A stretch of DNA of 64,000 bases from an uncultured Methanosarcinales archaeon (GTDB lineage: Archaea > Nanobdellota > Nanobdellia > Woesearchaeales > JACPBV01). Below are positions 46,088 to 64,000 of this stretch, in pieces. The stretch is from assembly GCA_964577685.1 (NCBI GenBank), contig CAZNZT010000008.1, forward strand, positions 761 through 64,760, in the 5' to 3' direction. The notes beneath the pieces were generated by a model. It was not told where the DNA came from. It saw nothing but the letters and a program-made list of their open reading frames with translations, and did no database searches. Positions within the stretch are counted from its first letter, which is position 1. Each line of letters starts with the position of its first letter. The translations under genes and the position numbers were made by a program.

Positions 46088-47734
46088 TTATTTGCCATAA
46101 CAATTTTTACCTTTGAACTTTTGCCTATACGCTTCCAATAAAGGAGTAAGATTTCTTCTTGGTGGTTTTGACTCATTTAGCCTCTTCTTTATTTCCTCTT
46201 CGCTTAGTCTTACATCCAATTTTCTATTAGGTATATCAATATCTATTATATCATTGTCTCTTATTGCTGCTATTGGGCCATTGTTATACGCCTCCATCTC
46301 AACATGACCTATACATGGTCCTGAAGTCCCTCCAGAAAATCTTCCATCTGTAATCAAAGCAACCCTCTTGTAGCCAGCACCTTTTATGGCATCTGTTGGT
46401 GTTAACATCTCTGGCATTCCAGGTGCTCCAGCAGGTCCTTGATAAGGTAAAACAACAACATCCCCTTCGTTTATATCTTTTGATTCTATTGCCTCCAACA
46501 GTTCTTCTTCAGTATAAAAAACCTTTGCTGGCCCAGAATGTTTCATCATACTTGGATCAACTGCTGTTTGTTTAATAATAGCACTATTAGCAAGATTCCC
46601 CTTCAAAACAGCTATCCCTCCTTCTTTCATATATGGATTATCTAAACCCCTTATTATCTCTCCATCAAGAACTTTTCCTTCTTCTGCTATTTGTTTTATT
46701 GACTTCAAATTAACAGTAACAGAATCTTTTAATAAGCTCTTTAATCTATTCAATACAGCAGGTATTCCACCAGCTTTGTCTAAATCAGCTATTTCATATG
46801 GCCCTGCGGGAATTATCTTGCAGATATTAGGTGTTTCTCTTGATATTTTATCAAAAATTTCAACATCAATCTCAATCCCTGCTTCTCTTGCTATAGCAGG
46901 TATGTGCAATACTGTATTTGTAGAACCACCCATTGCCATATCCACCCTTATTGCATTTTCGAAGGCATTTTTAGTCATTATATCTCTTGGCTTAATATCC
47001 TTCTTAACCAACTCAACTATCCTCCTCCCGGTTTCATATGCCTGTTTCTTCTTTAGCGGATTTAAAGCTGGAGTAGTAGCACATCTTGTTAGTGACATTC
47101 CAAGTACCTCAGTAACAACAGCCATAGTATTAGCTGTATATAATCCAACACAAGAACCAGCACCACAACACATCAAAGATAACATACCCTCAGCTTCCTC
47201 TGCCTTGAGTTTACCAGCCTTAACCTCACCAACTAAACCAAAACCCTCAATCGGATGATGTTTCTTCCCCTCCACTACATTCGCTTTCATTGGCCCACCA
47301 GTAAGTATAATAGCTGGTAAATTTAATCTTCCAGCGGCCATTAACATTCCAGGTGTTATTTTATCACAATTTGTTACACCAACCCATCCATCAAGAGAAT
47401 GGGATAAAGTCATGATTTCAATATTATCAGCTATGTGTTCTCTAGAAGGCAAACTCAAACGCATTTCTACATGCATAGCGATACCATCACATACCCCAGG
47501 AACCCCCCATACAAAGGGAATACCGCCAGCATCCCTAATCCCATTCATTACCTCTTCAGTCAATTCATTTAGGTGTATGTGTCCTGGTATAATATTATTA
47601 TAGCTGTTGGCTACTCCTATAAAAGGCTTATCAGATTCCAAATCATCTTTTTTTACACCTGCAGAAAGCAATAACGCCCGATGGGGTAGTGTTTCTATTC
47701 TTTTCTTTAAAACATCTGATCGCATATTAATCAC
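46088..47734 (-). CDS. ilvD: Dihydroxy-acid dehydratase
   Basis: 'CDKITPGMLMAAGRLNLPAIILTGGPM', 'TDGRFSGGTSGPCIGHVEMEA' (IlvD/EDD signatures). Confidence 0.9.
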   Translation of the reverse strand: MINMRSDVLKKRIETLPHRALLLSAGVKKDDLESDKPFIGVANSYNNIIPGHIHLNELTEEVMNGIRDAGGIPFVWGVPGVCDGIAMHVEMRLSLPSREHIADNIEIMTLSHSLDGWVGVTNCDKITPGMLMAAGRLNLPAIILTGGPMKANVVEGKKHHPIEGFGLVGEVKAGKLKAEEAEGMLSLMCCGAGSCVGLYTANTMAVVTEVLGMSLTRCATTPALNPLKKKQAYETGRRIVELVKKDIKPRDIMTKNAFENAIRVDMAMGGSTNTVLHIPAIAREAGIEIDVEIFDKISRETPNICKIIPAGPYEIADLDKAGGIPAVLNRLKSLLKDSVTVNLKSIKQIAEEGKVLDGEIIRGLDNPYMKEGGIAVLKGNLANSAIIKQTAVDPSMMKHSGPAKVFYTEEELLEAIESKDINEGDVVVLPYQGPAGAPGMPEMLTPTDAIKGAGYKRVALITDGRFSGGTSGPCIGHVEMEAYNNGPIAAIRDNDIIDIDIPNRKLDVRLSEEEIKKRLNESKPPRRNLTPLLEAYRQKFKGKNCYGK

Positions 47735-47761
47735 CTTAATCTAATTTTTTATTAATATTAT

Positions 47762-48385
47762 TTATTTAACATAATTCTTTAGGGTCCCTATCCCCTCAAT
47801 TTTAATCTCTATTGTATCTCCTTTCTGCATTGGACCAATACCTGCAGGAGTTCCTGTAGAAATAATATCACCAGGCAATAAAGTCATTACCCTTGATATA
47901 AAAGATACCAACTCCTCAACCTTAAATATAAAATTTGAAGTACTAGAATCTTGTTTTAACTCTCCATTAAGAAAACTTTGAATTTTAAGATTATTGGGAT
48001 TTACATCCTTAACAACAGTTGGGCCAACCGGACAGAATGTATCAAAAGACTTTGCCCTTGTCCACTGTCCATCTTTTTTTTGTAAATCTCTCGCTGTTAC
48101 ATCATTTATACAGGTAAAGCCATCAATATGTTCCATAACCTCTCCTTCCCCGATATCTTTTATCCTATCTTTTATTATAACTCCAAGCTCTGCTTCATAA
48201 TCAACCCTTCTAGACATTTCTGGGTAGATTATATTTTCCTCCGGGCCTATCAGTGTTGTAGGTGGTTTAATAAATAATATTGGCTCTTCCGGCAAAGGCA
48301 TCCCTAATTCTTCAGCATGATCCCTATAATTCAAACCAACCAAAACTATCTTAGAAGGTTTATTTTTTAAAAAAGAAATATTCAT
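47762..48385 (-). CDS. Fumarylacetoacetate hydrolase (FAH) family protein
   Basis: '[17 protein letters not shown]', '[12 protein letters not shown]', '[14 protein letters not shown]' (FAH-fold metal and substrate motifs). Confidence 0.8.
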
Positions 48386-48390
48386 TTTAG

Positions 48391-49398
48391 TTATCTTTTT
48401 TTAAAGAGGTTTCTTATTTCTTCGCCGGTTATCTCAATTTGATGTTTTCCAATTTTTTCTCTGCTTTCCTTTAAAAAAGGCATTCCTTTTTTGTATTCTT
48501 CAACCCACTCCTTAGCAAATTCTCCACTCTCTATTTTCCTTAACGCCTCCTTCATCCTCTCTTTAACATCTTCCCCTATAATCCTATGTCCGACAGCCCA
48601 CATTCCATACTCTGCTGTATTGCTAATAACCTCTGCCATTCTTTTAATTCCTCCTTCCCATATAAGATCCACAATAAGTTTCATTTCATGCACGCACTCA
48701 AAGTACGCCATCTCTGGAGGATAACCAGCTTCTACCAAAACCTCAAAACCATTTTTCATTAATTCAACTAGACCTCCACATAAAACACACTGTTCACCAA
48801 ATAAATCCTCATATGTTTCCTGCTCAAAGGTACACTCCAGAACGCCTGCTTTTGTAAAATGCATAGCCTTAGCCAATGCTAAAGCCATTTCTCTCGCTTT
48901 TCCAGAAGCATTTTGGTAAACTGCAACTAGTGCTGGAACACCAAAACCTTCAAGATAGGCTTTTCTTTCTTCTGTTCCTGGAGCTTTTGGTGCAACCATG
49001 ATAACATCCACATCACTCGGAGGTATTATTCTCTTAAAACAAATATTAAAACCATGGGAAAAATAAAGCGTCTTTCCTGCTTTTACATAAGGCTTGATTT
49101 GATTTTCATAAATATCTGGTTGAACTTCATCCGGCAAAAGGATTTGGATAATATCAGCTTTTTCTGCGGCCTTGTCTATTGAAAATACCTCAAACCCATC
49201 TTCCTTTGCTTTATTCCAACTAGGATTTTGTTTCCCACCTATAACCTCCGTTTCTCCAATTATTACACTAACCCCAGAATCTCTAAGCATATTTGCTTGG
49301 GCAGACCCCTGTGCTCCGTAACCAATAGTTGCAACCACTTTACCCTTTAAAATACCTTCATCTATATCTTCATCATACAATACTTTCATAACAACCAA
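48391..49398 (-). CDS. ilvC: Ketol-acid reductoisomerase
   Basis: NADPH Rossmann '[21 protein letters not shown]'. '[39 protein letters not shown]'. Confidence 0.9.
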
Positions 49399-49601
49399 CC
49401 CCCTAGACTATTTGATTTTTTATTAAAAATTTTCTATTAGAGGTAATCATACTCCATTTATAAATATTGCTCTTACTTAAATCTCTCAAGGACATCTTCA
49501 CCCGCCATTCCTTTCCTAACACCTAGCTCTTTTGCTCCTGTTGGCTTTTGTTGAAACACCACAAAAACAAATCCCCCTAACAATCACTTTTTCTACTTTT
49601 A

Positions 49602-50729
49602 TCATTTTAATTTTTTTATTATAGCATCCCCCATTTCAGAAGTCTTCGCTGTCCCACCAAGGTCTTTTGTTTTCACTTTCCCTTCTTTTAAAACTTCTTC
49701 TATTGCTCTAATTACCTGCTTAGCTGATTCCTCCTCTCCAAGTTCTTCTAACATCATAGAACCAGCCCAAATTGTTGCTATTGGATTTGCTATACCTTTT
49801 CCCTTATATTTTGGAGCAGAACCATGTATTGGCTCAAACATTGAAATACCATCTGGGTTAATATTTCCTCCAGGAGCAAGTCCTAATCCACCCTGAATCA
49901 TAGCACCGAGGTCTGTTATTATGTCCCCGAACATATTTGGAGTCACAATCGTTTGAAACCATTCTGGATTTTTAACAAACCACATAGTTATAGCATCAAC
50001 AAAATTAAACTCATAATTTATCCCGGGATAATCCCTAGCAACTTCTTCTAAAATCTCACGCCAAAAAGAATAAACATAATCTAAAACATTTGCCTTATCA
50101 ACAGATGTAAGTTTATCCCTCTTCTTCCTCTTTGTTAATTCAAAAGCATATTTTATAACCCTCTTTGCTCCTTCTCTACTTATAACCCCAATCTGATATG
50201 CTATCTCTGAACCCTGTGTATCTATATCCAATCCAAATTTTATTTTATAAAGACTCCTTACTATTTCAAGTTCTTGTTTCGATTTTCCTATTTTGGCTCT
50301 ATTTCCAATACCGACATAAAAGTCTTCTGTATTCTCTCTAACTACATCAAAGTTTATATCAGTAGGCCCTTTATCTCTCAACGGAGTTTTAACCCCCCCT
50401 AATAGCCTCACAGGCCTTAGATTAATAAATTGATCAAAATAAAATCTCATCTTAAGTAAAATCCCCTTCTCTAGAATTCCTGGCTTAACCCTAGGATCGC
50501 CCAAAGCACCTAAGTAAATAGCATTACATTTCTGTTCAATCTCTTTTAGGGTTTCTTCCGTTATAAGTTCTCCTGTCTTTAAATATTTCTCTGCCCCATT
50601 ATCATATTCCCTCCATTCAATATCAAAACCATTAAGATCAGCTACTCTTTCTATTACCTTAACTCCTTCTGCTATTATCTCTGGACCTATACCATCCCCC
50701 GGAATTAAAGCAATTCTATATTTTTTCAT
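49602..50729 (-). CDS. leuB: 3-isopropylmalate dehydrogenase (isocitrate/isopropylmalate DH family)
   Basis: '[15 protein letters not shown]', 'NLRPVRLL', '[26 protein letters not shown]'. Operon context with leuCD. Confidence 0.8.
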
Positions 50730-51213
50730 ATTGAGTCTTTATATAGTTTAACAAACCTCCTGCCTTTATAATATCCAAAGCAAATTTAGGAAAAGGATTA
50801 AATTTAAATTCTTTCCCATTATTCAAATTTTTTATTATTCCCCTCCTTAAATCGATTTCTAAATTATCTCCATCATTGACTTTATTTACAACATCCTTAC
50901 ACTCTATGGCCAAAAATCCATTGTTAATAGCATTCCTAAAAAATATCCTTGCAAAACTTTTAGCAATTACTGCACTTATACCAGCTCCCTTCAAAGCCCA
51001 TACGGCGTGCTCTCTAGAAGAACCACAACCAAAATTTTCACCAACAACGATAAAATCTCCCTTACTAACTTTTTTAACAAAATCCCTATCCAAATCCTCC
51101 ATAGCATGTTTTGCAAGTTCTTCCTCTTTATCTATATTCAAATATCTAGCAGGGATTATCTCATCAGTATTTATATGATCCTTCTTATAAACATGTGCTT
51201 TACCTTTCATCAT
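50716..51213 (-). CDS. leuD: 3-isopropylmalate dehydratase small subunit
   Basis: '[22 protein letters not shown]', '[17 protein letters not shown]'. Overlaps the leuB start by 14 nt and the leuC stop by 4 nt. Confidence 0.8.
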
Positions 51214-52469
51214 AAGTACTCCCTCGGGTCAGTAATTTTTCCTTCTATGGCTGAGGCCGCTACTGTTGCAGGACTAGCCAAATATACCTTAGAATCTGGA
51301 TGACCCATTCTCCCAGTAAAATTTCTATTGGTTGAACTAATACAAACCTCTCCCTCAGCTAAAATACCCATATGACCACCCAAACAAGCCCCACATGTTG
51401 GAGTTGAAACTACTGCACCAAACTCTATAAATATGTCTATCAGGCCTTCCTTATTTGCTTGCTTCCATATCTCTGTTGTCGCAGGAACTATAATCATTCT
51501 TGTCCCTTTCGCTATTTTATTTCCATCTAAAATTGAAGCAGCAATCCTCAAGTCTTCAATTCTTCCATTCGTACAGCTTCCTAGATATGCTTGATCTATC
51601 TTAATATTCTTAATCTTAGAAATAGGAACCCCATTACTTGGCAAATTAGGAAAAGCCACAATAGGTTCTAAATCGGATATATCATACTCCTTAATCTCTC
51701 TATACACAGCATCTTTATCTGATTTAAACATTTCAAATTTTTCTTTTGTTCTTTCTTTAACATACTCCAAAACTTTTTTATCTGGTTCCATTATACCAGA
51801 TTTAGCACCTGCTTCTATTGCCATATTTGTTATTGTCATCCTAGCTTCTACCGAAAGTTGCTTTACGACCTCTCCAGTAAATTCCATAGCTTTGTATAAT
51901 GCCCCATCTACCCCAATATCTGATAATATGTGTAATATAATATCTTTTGAATAAACACCTTCAGGTACCTTTCCATCCAATACGAACTTTATTGACTCAG
52001 GAACCCTAAACCACAGCTTGCCAGTAGCAATAGCTGCAGCTATATCAGTCGAACCAACCCCTGTTGAGAATGCTCCAAAAGCACCATATGTACATGTATG
52101 AGAATCTGCTCCAACAATCAAACTACCAGGTACCACATACCCTTGCTCTGGCAATAGAGCATGGCATATTCCATGATTACCCACCTCATAATAATTCCTG
52201 ATATGAAACTCCTCAACCCATTTTCTTAATCTTTTGGTTAATTGTGCTGACTTTATATCCTTATTAGGCACAAAATGATCAGGTGTAACAACTATCTTAT
52301 CAGGATTAAACGCTTTCTTAATACCAAACTTATAAAGCATATCTATAGCCGGAGGAGTAGTTACATCATGACAGACTATTACATCAATATCTGCATTAAT
52401 TAATTCTCCAGGCTTGACTTTATCCTTATTCGCGTGTTTTGCAAGTATTTTCTCTGTTATTGTTTGCAT
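51210..52469 (-). CDS. leuC: 3-isopropylmalate dehydratase large subunit (aconitase family)
   Basis: '[11 protein letters not shown]', '[11 protein letters not shown]', '[11 protein letters not shown]', Fe-S ligands '[11 protein letters not shown]' and '[10 protein letters not shown]'. Confidence 0.85.
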
Positions 52470-52471
52470 TT

Positions 52472-52744
52472 TTAACCAAACTTATAATATTTTTTTACGG
52501 GCTTATTAATTTTCCATTTACATTTTAAGCCTCTAGGGAAAACAACTAAATCTCCTTTTCCAAACTTCACATGCTCGCCATCCTCTGTTATTACTTCAAC
52601 ATCTCCCTCAATTAGTAAACAAGTTTCCTTCTCATCGTACTCCCACGGAAACTCTGAAATCCCTTTCTCCCATATACCCCATGATTTTGCTTCTTCTTTT
52701 TCTTTTTCAGTTGGTTTTCTTACTTCTATCCTCACCAAAATCAC
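52472..52744 (-). CDS. Small cupin-fold protein embedded in the leu/ilv operon
   Basis: 90 aa. '[31 protein letters not shown]' is a cupin beta-barrel motif pair. Translationally coupled on both sides. Confidence 0.5.
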
Positions 52745-53226
52745 CCCCTAGATATAGCAGTTACGCCAGTTCTAGATATTTCTCTTATCCCAAATTGCTT
52801 CATTAATTCAATAAAAGCATCAATCTTAGCAGGAACACCTACTAATTCCGCTGTTACAGACTTAGGAGTTATATCTACAATCTTTGTCTTATATATTTTA
52901 GTATAACGTAAAATATCCTCTTTTGCTTTCTTATTAGGTATGGCTATCTTAACTAAACAAAGTTCTCTTATAACTGATCTTTCCTCCGGCATTTCTATAA
53001 CTTTTATCGTATTTATTAACTTATTAATTTGTTTTTTAACTTGCTCAACTGTTTTATCATCACCAAAAACAGTAATTACCATCTTTGATATTCCAGGGGT
53101 TATTGTCTTGCCAACAGTAATCGTATCTATGTTAAAGCCCCTCCTAGCAAACATACCTGCTATTTTTGTCAACACACCAGGTTGATCTTCAACAAGCATA
53201 GCTATAACATTCCTTCTTTCCTTCAT
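52741..53226 (-). CDS. ilvN: Acetolactate synthase small (regulatory) subunit, ACT domain
   Basis: 'RNVIAMLVEDQPGVLTKIAGMFARRGFNIDTITVG' (IlvH/IlvN ACT signature). Confidence 0.8.
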   Translation of the reverse strand: MKERRNVIAMLVEDQPGVLTKIAGMFARRGFNIDTITVGKTITPGISKMVITVFGDDKTVEQVKKQINKLINTIKVIEMPEERSVIRELCLVKIAIPNKKAKEDILRYTKIYKTKIVDITPKSVTAELVGVPAKIDAFIELMKQFGIREISRTGVTAISRG

Positions 53227-53228
53227 TT

Positions 53229-54944
53229 TTATTCCCTCTCAAAAAATTTACCAGGTGCAGGCATACATCCTCCAAAAGCATCCTTCAAATGTCCTCCAGG
53301 TGCCAACATTGGTAAGATGTTCACTTCTTCTTCTACCTGAACATCAATAATTGTAGTAACATCATTACTAATTGCTTTCTTTATTGCCGGTTCAAGCTCA
53401 GATTCTCTCTCAACTCTTATTCCCTCTAATCCATAAGCTTCTGCTACCTTAACGAAATCAGGAGTTCTACCTAGATAGACATTTGAGTATCTCTTACCCA
53501 AAAAAAGTTCTAACCACTGTCTAACCATCCCTAGATACGAATTATTCATTATAATAGGTATTATCTTGATATTCTCCTCTTTTATTGTCCCCAATTCTTG
53601 TATAGTCATTTGGAAAGAACCATCACCATCTATTAAAAAAACATTTGAACTTGGTTTTGCAACTTTTGCTCCTATTGCCGCTGGTAAACCAAACCCCATC
53701 GTCCCTGCACCACCAGAGCTTATGAATGTTCTTGGTTTTGAACATTTAATAAAATGTCCTGCAAACATCTGATGCTGACCAACACCAGTAACCACAATAT
53801 CATCTGGCTTCATTATCTTATTTATATTGCTCATAACAACTCTTGGATGTATTTTCTTTGTTTTATGCAATGGAACACAACCATCACAAATTTGTTTGTA
53901 CCTCTTTATTTTATTTATCCAACCTTCTTTCTCCTTTATAGTTTTCTTTTTGATAGTATTTATTAATGCAATTAGTACCTCTTTTGCATCACCAACTATA
54001 GGTATATCCACCTCAACATTTTTTCCAATTTCAGCAGGATCAATATCTGCATGTATAATCTTTGCATTTTCTGCGTATGTCTTCAAATTTCCAGTTATCC
54101 TATCACTAAACCTACAACCGATTGCTATTAGAAGGTCTGCATTCAATGTTGCATAATTTGCTATCTTCCTTCCATGCATCCCAACCGTCCCTAAACTCAA
54201 AGGATGTCTCTCATCAAATACCCCTTTACCCATGAAGGTAGTAGTAACTGGAATCTTAGTTAAATTAACAAACTCCCTCAACTCCTTATGTGCATTTGAT
54301 ATAACAACTCCCTGACCAACCAACAATAAAGGCCTTTCTGAGTTTAATATTGCCTCTACAGCAAGTTTTATCTGGACTGGATTTGGTTTTATAGTTAATT
54401 TAAAGCCAGGGATTGCAACATCTCTAGGAATCGGTTCTGTTACTTCCTCTACCTGAATATCTTTAGGCAAATCAATATAAACAGGACCAGGCCTACCGCT
54501 TTGTGCTATCTTAAAAGCTTTCATGATAGTTTCAGCAATTTTATTTGCATTTCTAATCTGAAAATTATGTTTTGTTATTGGCAATGTTATACCCATCATA
54601 TCTGTTTCTTGGAATGCATCATTTCCAATTAGAGTTGTGGGAACCTGTCCACCAAAGGCTATTATTGGAACAGAATCCATATAAGCGTCCGCTATTCCAG
54701 TAACCAAATTACAAGCACCAGGACCAGAAGTTGCTATACATACACCTGCTTTCCCAGATGCTCTTGCATATCCTTCTGCTGCATGTGCTGCCCCTTGCTC
54801 ATGTCTCACTAAAACGTTCTTTATTTTATCTTTATGCTCTAAAAAAGCATCAAACAACGGTATAACTGCCCCACCTGGAAATCCAAATGTGACATTTGTT
54901 TTTTCCCTTATCAACATCTTAATTATCATATTTGCTCCATTCAT
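53229..54944 (-). CDS. ilvB: Acetolactate synthase large (catalytic) subunit
   Basis: TPP enzyme. 'GFPGGAVIPLFDA', TPP motif 'IDGDGSFQMTIQELGT...NNSYLGMVRQWQ'. Confidence 0.9.
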   Translation of the reverse strand: MNGANMIIKMLIREKTNVTFGFPGGAVIPLFDAFLEHKDKIKNVLVRHEQGAAHAAEGYARASGKAGVCIATSGPGACNLVTGIADAYMDSVPIIAFGGQVPTTLIGNDAFQETDMMGITLPITKHNFQIRNANKIAETIMKAFKIAQSGRPGPVYIDLPKDIQVEEVTEPIPRDVAIPGFKLTIKPNPVQIKLAVEAILNSERPLLLVGQGVVISNAHKELREFVNLTKIPVTTTFMGKGVFDERHPLSLGTVGMHGRKIANYATLNADLLIAIGCRFSDRITGNLKTYAENAKIIHADIDPAEIGKNVEVDIPIVGDAKEVLIALINTIKKKTIKEKEGWINKIKRYKQICDGCVPLHKTKKIHPRVVMSNINKIMKPDDIVVTGVGQHQMFAGHFIKCSKPRTFISSGGAGTMGFGLPAAIGAKVAKPSSNVFLIDGDGSFQMTIQELGTIKEENIKIIPIIMNNSYLGMVRQWLELFLGKRYSNVYLGRTPDFVKVAEAYGLEGIRVERESELEPAIKKAISNDVTTIIDVQVEEEVNILPMLAPGGHLKDAFGGCMPAPGKFFERE

Positions 54945-54954
54945 ACTTAATCCC

Positions 54955-56502
54955 TCACTTGAAATTATTTTTTCTCTGAAAATTAAGAGCTTTATTTATT
55001 CCTTTTATCAAAGCCCCTGCAGATGCCATAATAACATCACTATTAACAGACTCCGCTTTGAATAAATTTCCCTTATTATCCTGCACCTTTATAGAAACCT
55101 CTGCTAAGGCATCTGTTCCACCAGTTATAGCTTTCAATTCATATTCCTTTAACCTTATCGATGAACCAACTATTTTCTTGATAGCATCACTAACAGCATC
55201 AACAGGCCCTACCCCAGAGCCCTTACTAATTTTCTTTTTTCCATCAATTACTAAGACAACTATTGCCTCTGGCTTTATTTTATTTCCAGTCAAAACTTTT
55301 ATTTCCTCCAATCTTATTATTTCATCTTCTTCTAATTCACCTATGATATCAGTTGCAATTGCAATTACATCCTCCCTCATAATCTGTTTTTGTTTATCTG
55401 CTAATTCCTTAACCTTAGATGTGATTTTATTTATTTGCTCTTCATTAAGGTCGTAACCAGAATCTCTTAAAATAGCTTCAATTGCGTGTCTTCCGGAATG
55501 CTTACCAATCACAAGATTCGTACCAGTCCATCCTATATCTTCTGGATTCATAATCTCATATGTAAATTTATGGCTTAGAACACCATGCTGATGAATTCCT
55601 GCTTCATGAGCAAAAGCATTTTGACCAACAATAGCCTTATTTCTCTGCACAGCTATTCCAGTCAGAGATGAAACAAGTCTTGATGTCCTAAATATTTCTT
55701 TTGTATTTACGCTAGTATAAAATCCTCTAAAAAAGTCCTTTCTCGTCTTTATATTCATCACAACCTCTTCCAAGCTACAATTCCCTGCTCTTTCTCCAAT
55801 CCCATTTATTGTACACTCTATCTGGGTCGCTCCATTTCTTATTGCTTCCAATGAATTCGCAACAGCCAGACCTAAATCGTTATGACAATGCACACTAACC
55901 ACAACACCCCTTCTTCTTATTATATCGCCAATCTTATCAAAAACATACTTTATTCTCTTACCAAATTCTTCTGGTTCTGCATACCCTACAGTATCTGGGA
56001 TATTTATTGTATTAGCTCCAGCCTCAATTGCAGCCTTAATTACATCACACATATAATCCAAATCCGTCCTTGCTGCATCTTCTGGAGAAAACTCAATATC
56101 CCTACATAGAGATTTAGCATATTTCACAGCCCTAACAACAATATCTATTACCTCCTCCTTAGTCTTTCTTAATTTCTCTTTTATATGGATATCAGATGTA
56201 GCTATAAAAGTATGAATTCTTGGCTTTTTTGAATACATCAATGCTTCCCATGCCCGTTTAATGTCTTCTTTCTTTGTCCTAGCTAAGCCACATACTATTG
56301 GCTTCTTTATCTCCTTAGCTATAAGCCTTACTGCCTCAAAATCACCATCAGAGCTTATAGGAAACCCAGCCTCAATCACATCAACACCCAACCTCTCAAG
56401 CTGCTTAGCTATTATAAGCTTCTCTTTCACTGTAAGAGAAGCGCCAGGAGATTGTTCGCCATCCCTTAATGTAGTATCAAAAATTATTATTTTCTTCTTC
56501 AT
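54955..56502 (-). CDS. leuA: 2-isopropylmalate synthase (LeuA/CimA family, with C-terminal regulatory domain)
   Basis: 'IFDTTLRDGEQSPGASLT', 'VHCHNDLGLAVANSLEAIRNGATQIECTINGIGERAGN'. 515 aa including a LeuA dimerisation/allosteric domain. Confidence 0.85.
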   Translation of the reverse strand: MKKKIIIFDTTLRDGEQSPGASLTVKEKLIIAKQLERLGVDVIEAGFPISSDGDFEAVRLIAKEIKKPIVCGLARTKKEDIKRAWEALMYSKKPRIHTFIATSDIHIKEKLRKTKEEVIDIVVRAVKYAKSLCRDIEFSPEDAARTDLDYMCDVIKAAIEAGANTINIPDTVGYAEPEEFGKRIKYVFDKIGDIIRRRGVVVSVHCHNDLGLAVANSLEAIRNGATQIECTINGIGERAGNCSLEEVVMNIKTRKDFFRGFYTSVNTKEIFRTSRLVSSLTGIAVQRNKAIVGQNAFAHEAGIHQHGVLSHKFTYEIMNPEDIGWTGTNLVIGKHSGRHAIEAILRDSGYDLNEEQINKITSKVKELADKQKQIMREDVIAIATDIIGELEEDEIIRLEEIKVLTGNKIKPEAIVVLVIDGKKKISKGSGVGPVDAVSDAIKKIVGSSIRLKEYELKAITGGTDALAEVSIKVQDNKGNLFKAESVNSDVIMASAGALIKGINKALNFQRKNNFK

Positions 56503-58052: not shown

Positions 58053-58521
58053 AATAGCTGAATTGATACTTGTGACATTATTACCCTTTCTAGAACTAAG
58101 GGCATCTATACCATATGGGATATTTAAAACAAATTTAAATCTACTAACTATTTTTTCTATTTGTATAATAACGAATATAATTCTAGGAGTATTAATATAT
58201 TTGTTAATAGACTATATTATAAAAAACATTACAAAAATAAAACCAATAAAAAAGATTTGGGAGAAATACATAAAAAGAACACAAAAAAGGATACATAGCT
58301 ATGTAAACAAATACGGTGAATTTGCACTCGCCTTTTTCATAGGCATTCCTCTTCCTGGAAGCGGAGTTTACTCTGGAGCAATAGCAGCTTATCTTCTAGG
58401 TTTAAACTACAAAAAATTTGTAATTGCCAATATAATCGGTGTTTTGATTGCTGGAACAATTGTAACAATAATAAGCTTCACAGGCTTCCAAGCGCTAAGG
58501 ATATTCGTAAAAGTAATATAA
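58045..58521 (+). CDS. Small membrane protein, COG2426 / 'small multidrug export'-like
   Basis: 'LPFLELRASIPYGIF' N-terminal motif and 4 TM helices. Overlaps the cca stop. Confidence 0.4.
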   Translation: MNEIAELILVTLLPFLELRASIPYGIFKTNLNLLTIFSICIITNIILGVLIYLLIDYIIKNITKIKPIKKIWEKYIKRTQKRIHSYVNKYGEFALAFFIGIPLPGSGVYSGAIAAYLLGLNYKKFVIANIIGVLIAGTIVTIISFTGFQALRIFVKVI

Positions 58522-58548: not shown

Positions 58549-59109
58549 CTATTCAAAAAAATTTGCACCTTTTTTTAATGCCTCCTTATTAATAGCAATC
58601 AAATCCTGTTTACTTTTAGAAAAAAACTTATGTAGATTATCAAGGATTGTAGCCAAATTAACAATCTTAGTTTCTTTAACAAACGCACCAACAAGAACCA
58701 TATTAGCAACCTTTGTATTTCCCATTTTATTTGCAATCTCTGTTGCAGGTATACTTAATACCTTAATATCGCTTCTCTTAGGCTCTCTCTCAATCAGGGA
58801 TTTATTTATCACCGCTAGACCATTGCTTTTTATCTTACTCTCAAATCTATCAAAAGAGGGTTGATTAAGGATTATAACTGAACTAGGAACATCAACAACA
58901 GGGCTGTATATATCACTATCAGAAATAACTACTGTACAATTGGCAGTTCCTCCTCTCATCTCAACACCATAACTAACCATAGCTGTAACATTCTTACCCT
59001 CTATTAATGCAGTCTGAGCAAGAACATTACCTGCCAAAACAACTCCTTGCCCACCAAACCCTGCTATGATTATTTTTTCTTCCATTTTATCCCCTATCCT
59101 TAAAGACAC
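58549..59109 (-). CDS. porG: 2-oxoacid:ferredoxin oxidoreductase gamma subunit (POR/VOR family)
   Basis: '[22 protein letters not shown]'. Confidence 0.8.
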
Positions 59110-59827
59110 CCAATGGAAAATACTCCATCATTTTATCAACAAAAGATAATGAATCGCTAGGAGACATCTTCCAGTTCGTAGGACACATTGACAAAACTTC
59201 AACAAAACCAAATCCTTTATTATTAAGCTGATACTCAAAAGCCTTTTTTATAGCAAACTTTGCCTTTATAACATTATTAGGCGAATTAACAGCAACTCTC
59301 TCTATATATGCTGGACCATCAAAAGTCGATAACAACTCACAAATCCTCAATGGAAATCCTTCAATATCATTCCTCCTACCAAATGGTGTTGTAGTGGTTT
59401 TTTGTTCAAGTAGGGTAGTTGGTGCCATCTGTCCCCCAGTCATGCCATAAACAGCATTATTCACAAAGATAGTAGTAAAATTTTCACCCCTATTAGCAGC
59501 ATGTATAATTTCGTTTGTACCAATCGCTGCTAAATCACCATCCCCCTGATAAGTGAATATCACTCTATCAGGCATTAACCTCTTCATTGCTGTTGCTACA
59601 GCTGGAGGCCTTCCATGTGCACACTCAATAATATCACATCTAAAATAATTATAAAGTAAGACAGCACAACCAACAGGCGCTGTCCCAATTGTCTTCTCTC
59701 TTATTCCAAGTTCATCCAAAACCTCTGCAATTAATCTATGAACTATCCCATGCCCACAACCAGCACAATAATGAGTCTCTCTTTCCCTTAAGCTGGATGG
59801 TCTTTTTAAATACATTTTAATATACAT
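59087..59827 (-). CDS. porB: 2-oxoacid:ferredoxin oxidoreductase beta subunit (TPP-binding)
   Basis: '[14 protein letters not shown]', '[39 protein letters not shown]'. Confidence 0.85.
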
Positions 59828-60872
59828 CCCTTATCTTTTTATAAATATTCTGAGGTGAAGGATACCACCCACCACCATATCCAAAGTGCTCAACAAAAAC
59901 ATTCTCCTTACCAAATAAAGAAAGCTTAACATCCTCAATAAGCTGACCATTACTCATTTCTACTACTAAAAACTTATTAGCCCTCTCCGTAGCTTTAGCT
60001 ATAACATCTGAAGGAAACGGCCACACAGTGATAGGTCTTATTAAACCAACTCTAATGCCGTCTCTCCTTGCTTCATCTATTGCTCCCTTTGCTATTCTTC
60101 CACTGATTCCATAAGCAACTATAATAAGGTCAGCATCCTCTGTTTTATATTCCTCAAACAAACACAACTCTTTTTTTATTTTCTCGTATTTTTCTGTTAA
60201 ATGAATATTATGCTTAACCAATAAGTCTGGTGGTTGCAATAACAGAGTTTTAATAACTCTTGGTTCCCTACCTTTACAGCCATCTAGTACAAAATTCTTG
60301 TTTGGAAGCTTAAATAGTGGCTTGTATGGTTTAATCTCTACAGGTTCAAACATCTGCCCCAAAATACCATCGCCAAGAATCATAACAGGGTTTCTATAAT
60401 AATCTGCATAATCAAAGGCATTCATAGTTAAATCATATAACTCTTGTAATGTTGATGGTGCAATAACAATCATATGATAATCTCCATGTCCACCCCCTTT
60501 TGTAGCTTGAAAATAATCAGCTTGAGATGCCCTGATATTACCTAATCCAGGCCCACCCCTTACCATATTCACTATAACACATGGCAATTCCGCAGCTGCA
60601 ATATAACTTATACCTTCTTGTTTTAGTGCAATACCAGGACTACTAGAAGAAGTCATACATCTAAAACCAGCAGCTGCGGCACCAAATAGCATATTTATCG
60701 CAGAAAGCTCTGCTTCCGCCTGTATAAAAACAGCATTAAAATCTGGAGCCCTTTTTGCCATATATTCTGGAGCTTCATTCTGAGGTGTTATAGGATAACC
60801 AGCATAGAACTTACAACCTGCCTGCAAAGCGGCTTCAATAAAAACCTCATTACCTTTCATTATCCTTTTCAT
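59817..60872 (-). CDS. porA: 2-oxoacid:ferredoxin oxidoreductase alpha subunit
   Basis: '[29 protein letters not shown]', '[22 protein letters not shown]'. Confidence 0.85.
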
Positions 60873-61137
60873 TTTTTATTTCTATGCACAAGTCAGGACA
60901 CATCTGAAAACACATACCGCATCCACTACAGTTCTTTTCACTTATGATTTCAGCATAGTGATAGCCCTTCTTATTAAGCTTAGAGGAAAGCCTAATATTT
61001 TTTTTAGGGCAAACTATAACACAATAACCACAGCCCTTACATTTTTCTGAATTTATATTAATCTCTACCATGACAAACGAATCAAAATCAAAAAACCAAT
61101 ATTTCATTAAAAATCTTTCGTTTAACAACCAAATCAA
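60850..61137 (-). CDS. porD: 2-oxoacid:ferredoxin oxidoreductase delta subunit (2x[4Fe-4S] ferredoxin)
   Basis: 'CKGCGYCVIVCP' and 'CSGCGMCFQMCP'. Confidence 0.85.
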   Translation of the reverse strand: MIWLLNERFLMKYWFFDFDSFVMVEININSEKCKGCGYCVIVCPKKNIRLSSKLNKKGYHYAEIISEKNCSGCGMCFQMCPDLCIEIKNEKDNER

Positions 61138-62558
61138 ATAACATGCCTAAATTTCCTCTCATAATCTATTTCCATTTGGTGCAAGAATTCATAGAACTCA
61201 TGTAACCTAACAGGCAAACTAAAGCCCTTTAGCTCTTTTATGGCATTTTTTATTTTCTTAACAAGAGCCTTAGTCTTCCTTTTACCTCTTTTAAGCTGAA
61301 ATTCAACCTTAATTCCATTCCGCGTGTCTATAATGAAATTGCCACTAATAGAGCTTGCTACATCATGATACCGATAAACAGCCTCTTTTATATCACTTGG
61401 GGATATCTTCCTTTTACCAATACTTATGATATCTTTCTTTCTTCCACCAACACAAACAACAGGTAACTTATACTTCGGAATAAGATATTTATAACCAGCC
61501 TTTATTAGAACATCTTTAAATTCCTCATATCTAAAAATCTTTCCACAATCATTTGTATTATACCTAATCAAAGGCATTTTCATTTTTGTGTCCAACATAG
61601 AAAAAACCAATTCAGAATAAAGAGAATTACTAGGTAAAGACTCAAGAAAAATTTTATTTGGAAAATATTGGAAAATAAAAGGACAAGCGTCAACATCTTC
61701 CTTGAATAGAGCATATCTTAATTTTTCATCTTTTTGTGCTATGTTTCTTATTCTTGCGGTCTCAAATGTTTCAAGAAATAACCCAATCCCACCAAGCTCT
61801 GTAACACCATATGTTGCTAAATAAAGCCCTTTACTCGGGTTTGAAAAATCCATACCCATAAGGTCCATTATGTATTCTCTAAAGCTCTCTGAAAACCAAT
61901 AGCCGCCAGTAATCACCCAAACATTAAGAGATTTCCAATCAATACCATTTTCAATTCCATCTTCCACTATTTTCTTCAAAAAACTTGAATCACCAGCTAT
62001 TATAAACTGGTCAACAACATCTTTCATTTGTTTCACTAAAGCAATTACGCTGTCACTTCTCACGCTTGTTTCTGCAAAAAGCAAACTAGTTTCAACCCTA
62101 ACTGCCATAGGCTCAAAGTTTATTAGAAAAGTTTTTTTCTCACTCGTATTACAAAACAAATCCAATAACAAATCAACTTTCTTCTTAGTCATTTTTCTAT
62201 CATCCTCAGTAACAACATTAAAAGAAAATTTTTTTGAATGACCAGAACTTAACATTATAAATTCAACATCTTTATATCCATCAATGCACAATTCCTCTAA
62301 AGGAAACCTAACAAATGTCGCTTCTTTATCAATAATCGGAACTAATTTCCTAAAGCTTGCAATATCTTTTACCTTATCTATGTCAACCTTTTTTTCTTCT
62401 AGAATTTTTCTATAAGCAGGCACATTCAATGCTGCTCTTCTAAATGACTTAATAAGTTTTTTTTCTCCTTCTTCTACTATCTTATCCGGATTGGAAGTAG
62501 TTAAAAACTTGACTAACAATTGTTTCTTTTTTTTTCTTATAAAGTCCGCTATACTCAT
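61134..62558 (-). CDS. PaaK/CapK-like adenylate-forming family protein (second copy, degenerate P-loop)
   Basis: 'AALNVPAYRKILEEKKVDIDKVKDIASFRKLVPIIDKEATF' is paralogous to the 634-2418 N-terminus. The P-loop position reads 'LSSGHSKKFSF' in place of SSGSSGTP. Confidence 0.65.
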   Translation of the reverse strand: MSIADFIRKKKKQLLVKFLTTSNPDKIVEEGEKKLIKSFRRAALNVPAYRKILEEKKVDIDKVKDIASFRKLVPIIDKEATFVRFPLEELCIDGYKDVEFIMLSSGHSKKFSFNVVTEDDRKMTKKKVDLLLDLFCNTSEKKTFLINFEPMAVRVETSLLFAETSVRSDSVIALVKQMKDVVDQFIIAGDSSFLKKIVEDGIENGIDWKSLNVWVITGGYWFSESFREYIMDLMGMDFSNPSKGLYLATYGVTELGGIGLFLETFETARIRNIAQKDEKLRYALFKEDVDACPFIFQYFPNKIFLESLPSNSLYSELVFSMLDTKMKMPLIRYNTNDCGKIFRYEEFKDVLIKAGYKYLIPKYKLPVVCVGGRKKDIISIGKRKISPSDIKEAVYRYHDVASSISGNFIIDTRNGIKVEFQLKRGKRKTKALVKKIKNAIKELKGFSLPVRLHEFYEFLHQMEIDYERKFRHVI

Positions 62559-62559
62559 T

Positions 62560-63987
62560 CTAACCTCTTTCTAAGGTAAAAAACTCAGAGGGCTTCTTAA
62601 GTGGAGGGTATTTCCCATACTTAGGTATCCTATTCTGGGTCCTTGTACTATTAAAATTTTCAATGGCAATTCTAGCAAGCTCGCTCACCATCCTCTTATA
62701 CCTAGTGCCAATACCATGATAATTAAAAAAAAGATAAGGGTATATGGTCTTGCTCTTATCAAGGTACCTATAATAAGCATGGTCAGCCCTCCTGCCACCA
62801 GTATAAGTAGAGACAGGCAAAACACCACAAAGATAAAAATTATTCTCTTCTAAAAATTTACATATAGAAGGTGCTTTTTTCTCTGTCAAATCAACAAAAA
62901 AACAACCAACACCTTTATTTTTTATCTCCTTAACTTTACTTTTTAGAGAACTATCAATTACAGGACTAGGATTTTTATATTTAACAATAAATCTTTTACA
63001 TCCAAGAATTTTATATATTAGCTTTATCATTTCATAGTCTTTGTAATAAACAAAAACAATATCAATAGAACTTCTAATGTAATCCCTAAGATCACAAAAC
63101 ATCGTCAAATAATTACTATAATCAGAATTACCAAAACCTGGTTCCGTATATCCCTGGTAGTCTTCATATCCCCCCAATTCAAAAAACAATGGCTTGTATC
63201 CTGTACGCTCTACTATATGAATCGTAATAGGATGTAAAGTGGTAGCAAAAACAACAAAGTAATCTGCATAAGTGGTATCTTTCATGATATCATAACCATA
63301 GAGATTTAAGTTTTCAGCTATTCCAAATCCCCTGTACCTTGGATCAACAATCAAATTTCCACATTCCGCAATATTTTTCCATCTTACTCCCAACTCCAAC
63401 AAAGAACCTAAACCAAAACCAACAACTTTGTCTTTATGGATGGCTAGAACACACCTAGAAGATTTTTCTTTTATTCTTTTCCTAAGATAGAAATAATTTG
63501 CAAATGGATGTTTCTTAAAGCTTTTTTTCTTAATGGCTTTTCTTGATAAAGAAAACTCCTTATAATAATCCCTAAACAAATTAGAAATCTGTTTTGTATA
63601 AGGTAAAATCTTTGATTTATCATTAGTTTTTATTACTATATACCTGATTACATAATCATCAAGCATATCTGTAACAGACTTAACATTCCTAGCTATCTTA
63701 TGCAAACATTGAAAAATCCTTACATACCATCCCTCCCCCAAAAAAGATTTTTTAAAAAAACTAAATCTAAGCATTGATTTTATAGCAAAAGCATAATCAC
63801 CAAAAGAGGTTTTTTTGATATGCTCCAAGAATGATAAAAAGGACTTGTGCCTGACAATCTTATCAATCTTATTATGAATAAATCTAACTAAATAATTCTT
63901 CTTTTCATAATAAAAAAACATTAACAAGGCATAAAAGTCCCTACTACATTCTCTAAGTGCCAATTCAACAATTTCTTTGTCAGACAT
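62560..63987 (-). CDS. GNAT-fold acyltransferase domain protein (FemAB-like size, 475 aa)
   Basis: Central 'VVGFGLGSLLELGVRWKNIAECGNLIVDPRYRGFGIAENL' carries the GNAT acyl-CoA motif A (R-x-x-G-x-G/A). Its stop is 1 nt from the start of the PaaK-like gene. Confidence 0.5.
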   Translation of the reverse strand: MSDKEIVELALRECSRDFYALLMFFYYEKKNYLVRFIHNKIDKIVRHKSFLSFLEHIKKTSFGDYAFAIKSMLRFSFFKKSFLGEGWYVRIFQCLHKIARNVKSVTDMLDDYVIRYIVIKTNDKSKILPYTKQISNLFRDYYKEFSLSRKAIKKKSFKKHPFANYFYLRKRIKEKSSRCVLAIHKDKVVGFGLGSLLELGVRWKNIAECGNLIVDPRYRGFGIAENLNLYGYDIMKDTTYADYFVVFATTLHPITIHIVERTGYKPLFFELGGYEDYQGYTEPGFGNSDYSNYLTMFCDLRDYIRSSIDIVFVYYKDYEMIKLIYKILGCKRFIVKYKNPSPVIDSSLKSKVKEIKNKGVGCFFVDLTEKKAPSICKFLEENNFYLCGVLPVSTYTGGRRADHAYYRYLDKSKTIYPYLFFNYHGIGTRYKRMVSELARIAIENFNSTRTQNRIPKYGKYPPLKKPSEFFTLERG

Positions 63988-64000
63988 TATTATTCAAATC

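Follow-up and report, generated by a model that had tools for sequence, protein, structure and literature searches.

Two adjoining genes in the window (the whole 64-kb stretch of DNA analysed here) encode a GNAT-superfamily protein of 475 residues, referred to below as GNAT-475, and a divergent adenylate-forming enzyme, referred to as the ligase. We tentatively propose that the two enzymes work together as a module for acyl activation and acyl transfer, fed by the acyl-CoA pool, whose product would be a small molecule or lipid bearing an amide-linked N-acyl group. The features on which this proposal is based are collected in Table 1. The sequence-only reading of this DNA had correctly picked out the gene pair, while missing both the four 2-oxoacid:ferredoxin oxidoreductase (OFOR) genes that follow it and the rarity of the GNAT-475 family.

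Table 1. Features of the GNAT-475/ligase locus and its surroundings, with positions in the window.
Feature	Position	Strand	Basis or remark
GNAT-475 gene	62560..63987	(-)	475 aa; first gene of unit; ORF map
GNAT core domain, including acyl-CoA pyrophosphate-binding loop	63088..63516	(-)	Pfam stretch 158-238; PDB profile matches over 159-240
Ligase gene	61134..62558	(-)	474 aa; ORF map; starts 1 nt past GNAT-475 stop
Modified P-loop (A3 motif) SSGHSKKFSFN	62217..62249	(-)	Alignment columns
OFOR delta subunit, 2x[4Fe-4S] ferredoxin	60850..61137	(-)	Fer4 families; OGOR_delta/PorD-like
OFOR alpha subunit, VorB type	59817..60872	(-)	NF005507 (VorB) 503.5 bits, cutoff 399; POR_N, PFOR_II
OFOR beta subunit, TPP-binding	59087..59827	(-)	TPP_enzyme_C; 2-oxoacid Fd oxidoreductase beta models below cutoff
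OFOR gamma subunit, last in same-strand run	58549..59109	(-)	PF01558 POR; TIGR02175 89.4 vs cutoff 81.1
ilvD, ilvC, leuB, leuD, leuC, cupin, ilvN, ilvB, leuA	46088..56502	(-)	Called genes; Pfam

The ORF map places the two genes exactly where the sequence-only reading had put them, and the homologues found for each indicate that both are real and conserved. Their junction reads GGT TAG A ATG, and a Shine-Dalgarno-like element, AGAGGT, lies 8 nt upstream of the ligase ATG. The 1-nt spacing together with this element argues for selected co-expression of GNAT-475 and the ligase. The pairing itself is conserved rather than accidental, since three independent archaeal genomes have members of both families less than 10 kb apart. 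An absent GNAT fold or an unconserved neighbourhood had been named as grounds for abandoning the pairing; the fold is present (see below), and so is the conserved neighbourhood. It should be noted that a transposase-like C-terminus is encoded 59 nt upstream of GNAT-475, so that the arrangement seen in the window may be recent. In comparison with a related MAG, the ligase is 49% and the GNAT 42% identical to their counterparts, against 70-86% for housekeeping enzymes.

Homologues of the ligase fall into 93 clusters, with E-values down to 1e-122. The protein has no match in Pfam, and in NCBIfam it matches PaaK models weakly; neither the ligase family nor the GNAT-475 family has a curated model. 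The AF2 model of the ligase (pLDDT 92.8) gives TM scores of 0.70/0.77 to PaaK1, and Foldseek returns BT_0428, PaaK1/2, HCL, NatL2, AjiA1 and ClxA, with an E-value of 1e-23 to BT_0428 and PaaK1. The best of these structural matches are CoA ligases (BT_0428, PaaK1/2 and HCL), and the relatives as a whole also cover amide- and ester-forming enzymes (NatL2, AjiA1 and ClxA). The fold of the ligase is assigned with confidence to the PaaK-like subfamily (COG1541) of the adenylate-forming ANL superfamily, in which the protein is a divergent member. Identity with PaaK itself is not supported: the PaaK equivalog model (TIGR02155) gives 38.9 bits against a cutoff of 646, and there are no paa genes nearby.

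The degenerate P-loop SSGHSKKF that had been pointed out in the ligase is real, and the altered loop is common to the whole family, with the consensus SSG[FH]SGxFS[FY]G in the alignment as opposed to the canonical SSGTTGxP. In the window ligase, the second glycine of the loop is replaced by lysine, at a position where three other members carry R or E; the distant members P0092-P0094 keep the canonical SSGSTGxPT. None of the motifs A5, A7 and A8 is lost, nor is the A10 lysine (conserved residues G251/E254, R332/Y333/D337, G372/R373 and K469), and by these residues the ligase looks active. Its C-terminal motif is LDYERKF rather than PxxxxGK.

GNAT-475 belongs to the GNAT superfamily, i.e. it has the acyl-CoA N-acyltransferase fold. 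It scores 28.3 bits with Pfam Acetyltransf_1 (PF00583; cutoff 20.7), and its RxxGxG acyl-CoA loop is intact as R217-Y-R-G-F-G222, with G222 invariant in the family. The AF2 model is of moderate confidence (pLDDT 75); in Foldseek it matches SpeG, PaiA and PA4794 (probability 1.00, ~190 columns) and also GCN5, the fold matches being small GNATs (small-molecule N-acyltransferases) only. The earlier description of a large GNAT-fold protein holds for residues ~158-300. The rest consists of a helical domain at the N-terminus (aa 1-141) and, at the C-terminus, an alpha/beta domain that is conserved (aa ~308-450); neither matched a recognised family, and the invariant residues of the family lie in the GNAT and C-terminal domains alike. 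The label FemAB-like has to be dropped, as neither PF13480 nor TIGR03019 matches GNAT-475. Neither Pfam nor the fold comparison shows similarity to malonyl-CoA decarboxylase. TIGR03694 does not match either, and profile comparison with that family is not significant (hhalign probability 3%); a short local resemblance between the two can be seen, namely: IGGxEDYYGYxEP vs IGPExDYYGPVxPY. About five relatives of GNAT-475 were found among 1.84 billion (1.84e9) representatives, with E-values from 9e-103 to 5e-40, and it appears to represent a very rare, archaea-only acyltransferase family.

Downstream of the pair, the ligase strand continues with four OFOR genes (delta, alpha, beta and gamma), no gap exceeding ~63 nt, and the gene after gamma (58045-58521) is convergent. 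The true start of the delta gene is possibly an ATG at ~61070, which would leave a spacer of ~63 nt after the ligase. We infer that the pair is co-transcribed with the OFOR genes; a T-run and a TATA-like element in the spacer mean that the latter may also be transcribed separately. The delta and beta subunits are recognised by family and fall below equivalog cutoffs. As judged from its subunit families, the enzyme would be a VorB-type, four-subunit 2-oxoisovalerate:ferredoxin oxidoreductase (VOR), with a putative substrate specificity. Next to this run lies a full set of branched-chain amino acid biosynthesis genes (the ilv/leu block), which shows 70-86% identity to its equivalent in the related MAG. 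The 2-oxoacids of the OFOR could plausibly come from this block or feed into it, and ilvE is also found within the window; we regard the block as context, its membership in the unit being putative. The OFOR link is unique to the window, as no OFOR is present at the other ligase loci (~70) or the other GNAT-475 loci.

In the Methanosarcinales-labelled MAG, one strand carries ThiF-Amidohydro_2-ligase-3HCDH-CARDB-MacB/FtsX-ABC-CT-BCCP-BC-GNAT-475, in which the CARDB gene encodes a CARDB-like protein and the ABC genes a MacB-type exporter. At a second locus (L015, assigned archaeal by Kae1), a ligase homologue (E 7e-81) is the first gene of an operon that also holds genes for FabZ-like dehydratase, thiolase, KR, biotin ligase and BioY, and this operon is convergent on CT-BCCP-BC-GNAT-475. 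At a third (L013), BCCP-BC-GNAT-475 adjoins KR and a FabA-like gene. The carboxylase CT of these clusters is PccB/MmdA-like. The tightest conserved partner of GNAT-475 outside the window is biotin carboxylase: in three non-paralogous relatives, the end of the biotin carboxylase gene and the start of GNAT-475 behind it are 1-9 nt apart, with the ligase 6-8 genes off. The ligase family shares a cluster with GNAT-475 in two other archaeal genomes, and a paralog in the related MAG (P0097) stands alone beside ilv genes. Within the 64-kb window, no ThiF, Amidohydro_2, ABC exporter or ACC partners were found, nor CT, BCCP, BC, thiolase, KR or FabZ-like dehydratase genes. The archaeal context is one of acyl-CoA metabolism and fatty-acid-type genes, not of polysaccharide or surface-polymer genes. 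Archaea have a CoA-based, ACP-independent fatty acid synthesis (bioRxiv 10.1101/2024.07.05.601840), which the carboxylase/FAS clusters of the GNAT-475 relatives fit.

Outside the archaeal clusters the ligase family is bacterial, with hosts among Planctomycetes, Omnitrophota, Desulfobulbia, Halieaceae and methanotrophs. Its commonest neighbour is TIGR03694 (190 bits; cutoff 112), a GNAT-superfamily N-acyl amino acid synthase associated with PEP-CTERM/exosortase systems, which is present at 32 of the 52 bacterial loci and directly upstream and co-directional in 15 of them, so that these 15 share the GNAT-then-ligase order of the window. The bacterial loci also hold MacB/FtsX-ABC, LolA-like, AMP-ACP-acyltransferase and PEP-CTERM/exosortase genes, the last including XrtA, PrsT, EpsI and Bac_transf. 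In Nitrosospira (loci L048 and L054), ligase-family members lie beside PEP-CTERM proteins, PrsT and an exosortase, and a ‘possible CapK protein’ was tied to PEP-CTERM by phylogenetic profiling (NE2015 group, with Nmul_A0291; Haft et al. 2006). For the bacterial members of the ligase family, the parallel with exosortase loci drawn in the sequence-only reading stands. In the window itself, no exosortase, PEP-CTERM, LolA-like or AMP-ACP-acyltransferase genes were found. The search that had been suggested for an archaeosortase and its substrates gave nothing in the 64-kb window: the ~38 larger ORFs contain no match to PF09721, and a regex for a C-terminal P[GE][FP] plus hydrophobic tail picked up no PGF/PEF-CTERM-like C-terminus, ORFs of <140 aa being partly covered.

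In the proposed module, the ligase would adenylate a carboxylic acid and then either form its CoA thioester or couple the acid to a nucleophile. GNAT-475 would N-acylate an amine acceptor, perhaps an amino acid or an amine, from acyl-CoA, and the two steps could take place in either order. The acyl-CoA would be supplied here by the downstream VorB-type OFOR, acting on branched-chain 2-oxoacids of the adjacent ilv/leu genes, and in related archaea by acyl-CoA carboxylase and CoA-based fatty-acid-synthesis-like enzymes. The module might then be the archaeal counterpart of the bacterial pair formed by TIGR03694 and a CapK/PaaK-like ligase in PEP-CTERM/exosortase loci, where the equivalence of GNAT-475 and TIGR03694 would be one of position and fold class only. 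We further consider a broader scenario, which is speculative and on the whole rather doubtful. A lineage of archaea without cultured members, its nearest genome bearing the label Methanosarcinales, would have taken the ligase core from a bacterial exosortase-associated N-acyl amino acid pathway and rewired it with an archaea-only GNAT and a CoA-based acyl supply (OFOR or carboxylase/FAS), making fatty- or branched-acyl amide lipids or surfactants. GNAT-475 would then stand for a hitherto undescribed family of N-acyl amino acid (or amine) synthases that had been recruited by convergence. To our knowledge, such compounds are a class not known from archaea.

It is unlikely, in our view, that the locus serves the salvage of organic acids instead. 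Here the ligase would make branched or aryl acyl-CoA from exogenous isobutyrate, isovalerate or 2-methylbutyrate, the VorB-type OFOR would reductively carboxylate it to a 2-oxoacid, the ilv/leu/ilvE enzymes would lead on to valine, leucine and isoleucine, and GNAT-475, acting as a lysine acyltransferase, would turn off the ligase. Such a route would suit the close same-strand run of the ligase and OFOR genes, the alpha subunit above the VorB cutoff, the adjoining leuA-ilvBN-leuCD-leuB-ilvC-ilvD block with ilvE, and the CoA ligases at the top of the structural matches. In anaerobes, PaaK-type ligases are known to be paired with indolepyruvate or 2-oxoacid oxidoreductases; furthermore, Pat and AcuA switch off acetyl-CoA synthetase, and the ligase has the A10 lysine (K469) at which acetylation usually takes place. 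However, none of the other ligase-family loci (~70) is near an OFOR, the conserved partners being N-acyl synthases, exporters, ThiF and Amidohydro_2. In other genomes GNAT-475 tracks acyl-CoA carboxylase and not the ligase, a pattern hardly to be expected of a regulator dedicated to the ligase, and the ligase C-terminus lacks the PxxxxGK recognised by Pat-type enzymes. In addition, the known archaeal protein acetyltransferases are small and do not resemble a three-domain protein of 475 aa whose C-terminal domain is highly conserved.

The link of GNAT-475 to the carboxylase could also be read as primary, in that the protein is an accessory of the acyl-CoA carboxylase/malonyl-CoA node (perhaps a malonyl/methylmalonyl-CoA-dependent transferase, a GNAT of decarboxylase type or a regulator that senses acyl-CoA), and its place next to the ligase and OFOR genes a side effect of rearrangement beside a mobile element, with no joint pathway. 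The biotin carboxylase spacing in the three relatives, the transposase-like gene end, the strong divergence of the pair relative to housekeeping enzymes and the solitary paralog beside ilv genes are all consistent with this. We nevertheless hold it to be improbable, given the signs of selected co-expression at the gene junction, the ligase family in the GNAT-475 cluster of two other genomes and the lack of malonyl-CoA decarboxylase similarity in Pfam and fold searches. Least probable, to our mind, is the model of the sequence-only reading, in which a CapK-like ligase and a FemAB-like acyltransferase put an amide-linked substituent on a surface polymer or sorted protein in an archaeosortase-type system. 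The exosortase loci around the bacterial homologues, the ‘possible CapK protein’ of Haft et al. (2006) and the CARDB-like protein and MacB-type exporter of the related archaeal cluster would agree with it. Against it stand the missing FemAB signal, the small-molecule character of the fold matches, the negative archaeosortase and sorting-signal searches in the window (larger ORFs, with those of <140 aa partly covered), and the absence of glycosyltransferase or polysaccharide genes beside the pair. With OFOR genes in the window and carboxylase, KR, FabZ-like dehydratase and thiolase genes in relatives, the acyl-CoA/fatty-acid context makes an acylated small amide or lipid a likelier product than a tailored surface polymer.

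If the proposed N-acylating module is real, it would offer a first clue to the function of the uncurated ligase family found with N-acyl amino acid synthases in the exosortase loci of many environmental bacteria. It would also define a new family of acyltransferases that is specific to archaea and linked to genes for acyl-CoA carboxylase and fatty-acid-type enzymes, bear on the use to which archaea put fatty acids, now that their synthesis in this domain is known, and make the compact six-gene unit (GNAT, ligase and OFOR) a possible source of new acyl-amide products. Under acid salvage, the locus would be an ordinary assimilation operon with an unusual regulator.

Among known systems, PaaK and the PaaK-fold enzymes (BT_0428, HCL, NatL2, AjiA1 and ClxA) share with the ligase the two-domain ANL fold (TM 0.67-0.77) and the conserved A5, A7, A8 and A10 motifs, but are only 13-19% identical to it, and the ligase differs in its rewritten P-loop and in having no Pfam match. 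As with the Pat/AcuA lysine acetyltransferases, the gene for a GNAT adjoins that for an ANL enzyme with an A10 lysine; unlike them, GNAT-475 has no NDP-forming acyl-CoA synthetase-like domain and follows the carboxylase elsewhere, and its neighbour has no PxxxxGK. The FemAB/FemX-type proteins that accompany CapK in exosortase loci follow the same general principle, in which an adenylating enzyme is combined with a transferase of the GNAT superfamily. The substrate of FemAB enzymes is aminoacyl-tRNA, whereas GNAT-475, which resembles them in neither sequence nor fold, keeps the acyl-CoA-type RxxGxG loop. The archaeal CoA-based FAS/carboxylase clusters are similar in that relatives of GNAT-475 lie amid PccB/MmdA-like CT, BCCP, BC, thiolase, KR and FabZ-like dehydratase genes, although such genes are absent from the 64-kb window; we know of no GNAT or PaaK-like component described for this type of fatty acid synthesis. 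Finally, the bacterial pair of TIGR03694 (FeeM/LuxI-like GNAT) and CapK/PaaK-like ligase differs from the window in that GNAT-475 is of another family (475 aa, three domains, archaea-only), that OFOR genes take the place of the exosortase-associated partners, and that the acyl donor is presumably acyl-CoA, because archaea, as far as we know, lack ACP. In common with that pair, the window ligase is a true homologue over its full length (30-47% identity), a GNAT-superfamily gene lies directly upstream and co-directional, and the ThiF, Amidohydro_2 and MacB/FtsX-ABC partners are shared with the related archaeal cluster.

Two minus-strand genes, GNAT-475, which encodes a three-domain acyltransferase, and a PaaK-like adenylate-forming ligase, form a pair at the positions given in the sequence-only reading. 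The GNAT-475 stop is separated from the ligase start by 1 base (GGT TAG A ATG), and the ligase ATG is preceded ~8 nt upstream by an AGAGGT element. Homologs show both genes to be genuine: those of the ligase form 93 clusters, the best at E 1e-122, and GNAT-475 has full-length relatives with E-values of 9e-103 to 5e-40. The four genes of a 2-oxoacid:ferredoxin oxidoreductase (OFOR), a context absent from the sequence-only reading, follow directly downstream of the ligase on the same strand, and this run terminates at a convergent gene at 58521.

Features of the window discussed in the text
Feature	Position	Strand	Length	Remarks
GNAT-475	62560-63987	-	475 aa
Ligase	61134-62558	-	474 aa
OFOR delta subunit	60850-61137	-		2x[4Fe-4S]; likelier ATG at ~61070, giving a ~63-nt spacer after the ligase
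OFOR alpha subunit		-		NCBIfam VorB, 503.5 bits (cutoff 399)
OFOR beta subunit		-		TPP-binding
OFOR gamma subunit		-		closes the OFOR run
Lgt homolog	44122-44901	-		PF01790, E 1.6e-46
Long ORF	23629-27000	-	1123 aa	no Pfam match at E<=1e-5
Long ORF	17303-19483	+	726 aa	no Pfam match at E<=1e-5; preceded by a T2SSE-type ATPase gene (15015-17306)
tRNA match	19515-19621	-	107 nt	32.6 bits; sole Rfam match in the window
Distant ligase paralog	634-2418	-	594 aa	28% identity, E 3e-36
Putative sensor histidine kinase and response regulator-PP2C/SpoIIE-type phosphatase fusion	2529-5424	+		adjacent ORFs, from translations

Past the gene for an archaeal CCA-adding enzyme lies a complete branched-chain amino acid (BCAA) block, namely leuA, ilvB, ilvN, a cupin gene, leuC, leuD, leuB, ilvC and ilvD, with ilvE more distant from the pair. 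The window is marked as archaeal by aRF1, the CCA enzyme, and the ribosomal and RNAP small subunits, all of archaeal type. Upstream of GNAT-475, beyond window position 64000 (L001:1-182 in the locus with its flank), is the C-terminal end of a transposase/integrase-like ORF (...WFNRKRFHRGINAIPCELYT), from which GNAT-475 is separated by a 59-nt AT-rich spacer carrying the TATA-like elements TTAATATA and TTATATAT ~25-35 nt before the ATG. This makes GNAT-475 the apparent first gene of the unit; the spacer suggests a promoter, and the transposase-like remnant possibly reflects a recent rearrangement. The window also encodes a clear homolog of Lgt (prolipoprotein diacylglyceryl transferase), a bacterial enzyme whose occurrence in an archaeal genome is unusual, and a tRNA match whose length suggests an intron-containing archaeal tRNA.

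GNAT-475 is recognisably a GNAT protein over residues ~158-300 only, where Pfam Acetyltransf_1 scores above cutoff and the RxxGxG loop occupies residues 217-222. Profile matches in the PDB are confined to this core and are to small acetyltransferases. Modelled by AlphaFold from five sequences (pLDDT 75, pTM 0.71), the protein has a helical domain at its N-terminus, then the GNAT core, then an alpha/beta domain at its C-terminus; in Foldseek the core alone aligns, to SpeG, PaiA, PA4794 and GCN5-type enzymes. The GNAT fold proposed earlier for this ORF thus holds for the core and not for the rest, and the FemAB-like assignment fails, with no match to PF13480 or TIGR03019 and no FemX-like fold match. 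Malonyl-CoA decarboxylase-like, Eis-like and FemX-like architectures were rejected, having no Pfam or Foldseek support. The many invariant residues of the C-terminal domain, including D366, F384, Y385, G388, P391, D402, Y405 and R407-L409, indicate that the domain is no vestige but has a function.

Members of the GNAT-475 family are extremely rare: an exhaustive HMMER search of 1.84 billion representatives yielded five relatives, one of which shares the C-terminal part only; a profile search added P0099 alone, a word-indexed search returned only the query, and pattern scans of JGI metagenomes gave zero matches. P0099 (495 aa; L075:3018-4505) joins an RsbW-like HATPase_c_2 domain and a GNAT domain to a GNAT-475-type C-terminal domain, with the common motifs FVDL.., GFY/F..G..P and D....YL; it shows this C-terminal domain to be a separable module.

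The ligase has no Pfam match and gives only weak PaaK-type matches to NCBIfam (38.9 bits vs. a cutoff of 646). With 52 family members as input, AlphaFold gives a confident model of it (pLDDT 92.8, pTM 0.92), which best matches PaaK-family ANL enzymes, namely BT_0428, PaaK1/2 (TM 0.70/0.77) and 2-hydroxyisobutyryl-CoA ligase, as well as the amide/ester-forming NatL2, AjiA1 and ClxA. The earlier assignment as a PaaK-like adenylating enzyme is thus upheld by structure but not by the PaaK model score. PDB sequence searches with either protein gave nothing useful. The P-loop, previously described as degenerate, does depart from the canonical form, but as a family trait that is not peculiar to the window protein: the family consensus is SSG[FH]SGxFS[FY]G, the most distant members retain the canonical SSGSTGxPT, and the second Gly, replaced by Lys in the window ligase, is Arg or Glu in three other members. 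Motifs A5, A7 and A8 are conserved, as is the A10 lysine (K469). We read the ligase as a presumably active adenylating enzyme, which may or may not use CoA. No curated model covers the family, bacterial or archaeal.

In the second, distant ligase paralog of the window, the P-loop is canonical (SSGSSGTP), matches to PaaK/F390-synthetase are weak, and the C-terminus is extended by a hydrophobic, apparently membrane-anchored stretch. A homolog of this paralog in a metagenomic locus (L074) is directly upstream of the ligase-family member P0011, and in the window the putative histidine kinase and phosphatase-fusion ORFs lie beside the paralog.

In a related, Methanosarcinales-labelled MAG, the GNAT-475 relative P0095 (42% identity) and the closest ligase homolog, P0003 (49%), are encoded on the same contig and strand, in a cluster with the order ThiF, Amidohydro_2, ligase, 3-hydroxyacyl-CoA dehydrogenase, CARDB-like, MacB/FtsX, ABC ATPase, carboxyltransferase, BCCP, biotin carboxylase, GNAT-475. 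P0096 lies downstream of BCCP and BC, opposite KR and a FabA-like dehydratase. P0098 lies downstream of CT-BCCP-BC in a locus (L015) that is archaeal by Kae1, and here a convergent operon starts with an unannotated 473-aa ORF belonging to the ligase family (33% identity, E 7e-81), followed by a FabZ-like dehydratase, thiolase, KR, biotin ligase and BioY. P0097 (431 aa; L014:10001-11296), a GNAT-475 paralog from the same MAG as P0095, is found beside an ilvB/ilvC/leuBCD/ilvN/leuA block. The surroundings of GNAT-475 are thus always of acyl-CoA or fatty-acid type. Except at the paralog's locus, a ligase-family gene lies no more than 10 kb from GNAT-475 wherever the flank is long enough. By tblastn, the 64-kb window contains no homologs of ThiF, Amidohydro_2, acyl-CoA carboxylase (ACC), KR, FabA/Z, thiolase, 3HCDH or MacB, and the ABC partners known from the relatives' clusters are absent from it.

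The window organism and the Methanosarcinales-labelled MAG are fairly closely related, their BCAA enzymes being 70-86% identical; the ligase and GNAT-475 are much more diverged. GNAT-475 genes are near BCAA genes in these two genomes (P0097 in the MAG). L015 also carries genes for a LuxC/LuxE-type acyl-protein synthetase and fatty-acyl reductase and an MFS transporter (2759-5493, minus strand), suggesting that this archaeon has a fatty aldehyde or alcohol chemistry.

Scanning species-representative genomes for the ligase family gave 58 loci, 57 of them bacterial, from Planctomycetia (including Brocadiaceae), Omnitrophota, Desulfobulbia, Bacteroidales, Alpha- and Gammaproteobacteria, Acidobacteriota, Nitrosospira and methanotrophs. 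When all neighbours were clustered, the commonest family by far was TIGR03694 (190 bits vs. a cutoff of 112), which NCBIfam calls 'PEP-CTERM/exosortase system-associated acyltransferase'. It occurs in 32 of 52 bacterial ligase loci and is directly upstream and co-directional in 15. Other recurrent neighbours are MacB/FtsX (22 loci), ABC ATPase (18), TP_0789/LolA-like protein (16), AMP-binding-ACP-acyltransferase fusions (15), PEP-CTERM proteins (15 + 8), ThiF-like (13), Amidohydro_2 (12), PrsT (9) and exosortase (6). The exosortase echo drawn in the sequence-only reading holds, with PEP-CTERM and exosortase genes recurrent. The presence of a ThiF/TcdA-like enzyme in a cluster of this kind is on record, and a 'possible CapK protein' is among the PEP-CTERM-linked families of Haft et al. 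2006.

The triad of ThiF-like, Amidohydro_2 and ligase genes is conserved in bacterial loci L017, L019, L022, L024, L025, L028, L032, L033 and L063 and in archaeal L016; NCBIfam has no model for its Amidohydro_2 member or for the ~390-aa putative outer-membrane protein. Many bacterial ligase genes are preceded by one for an unannotated protein of ~380 aa, which was rejected as a GNAT-475 relative; it is unrelated and, with its signal peptide, resembles an outer-membrane protein. Neither GNAT-475 nor the OFOR has a homolog in any of the ~70 bacterial or metagenomic ligase loci. A neighbour-joining tree groups the window ligase with that of the MAG, L015 being close by, and nests them within the bacterial family; since the tree carries no support values, inter-domain transfer of the ligase is taken only as a hint.

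The local gene context of the window makes it attractive to see the ligase and the VorB-type OFOR as salvaging branched acids into BCAA, with GNAT-475 as a Pat-like regulator, but this arrangement is seen in no other ligase-family member, and we consider it unlikely. That GNAT-475 is a carboxylase or malonyl-CoA accessory, incidentally adjacent to the ligase, appears slightly less likely still. The tightest partner of GNAT-475 in other genomes is biotin carboxylase, which weighs against the module favoured below. Tailoring of a surface polymer, as the sequence-only reading proposed, is supported by the exosortase context of the bacterial ligase homologs but contradicted by the absence of FemAB features, of sorting signals in the window ORFs scanned and of polysaccharide genes next to the pair, and we think it quite improbable. 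The pairing logic of that interpretation stands along with its exosortase echo, whereas its family assignments and its product class are probably mistaken.

Common to both domains is a GNAT-superfamily acyltransferase beside the ligase, surrounded by exporters and acyl-supply genes. In the archaeal version, the acyltransferase role would be filled by GNAT-475, and acyl supply would be CoA-based, through ACC and FAS-like genes in the relatives and the VorB-type OFOR in the window. To our knowledge, archaea have no ACP. A CoA-based supply fits this absence as well as the recent demonstration of CoA-based fatty acid synthesis in archaea (bioRxiv 10.1101/2024.07.05.601840). On the strength of this theme and supply, we tentatively favour, at slightly less than an even chance, an acyl-activation and N-acyl-transfer module making an acyl-amide small molecule or lipid; its step order, substrates and product are what we infer. 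Against such a module, the OFOR link is found in the window alone, the OFOR may be a separate transcript, and the transposase remnant lies upstream of GNAT-475. Compared with TIGR03694, GNAT-475 has no detectable homology beyond the common superfamily (hhalign probability 3%), so the equivalence of the two is positional.
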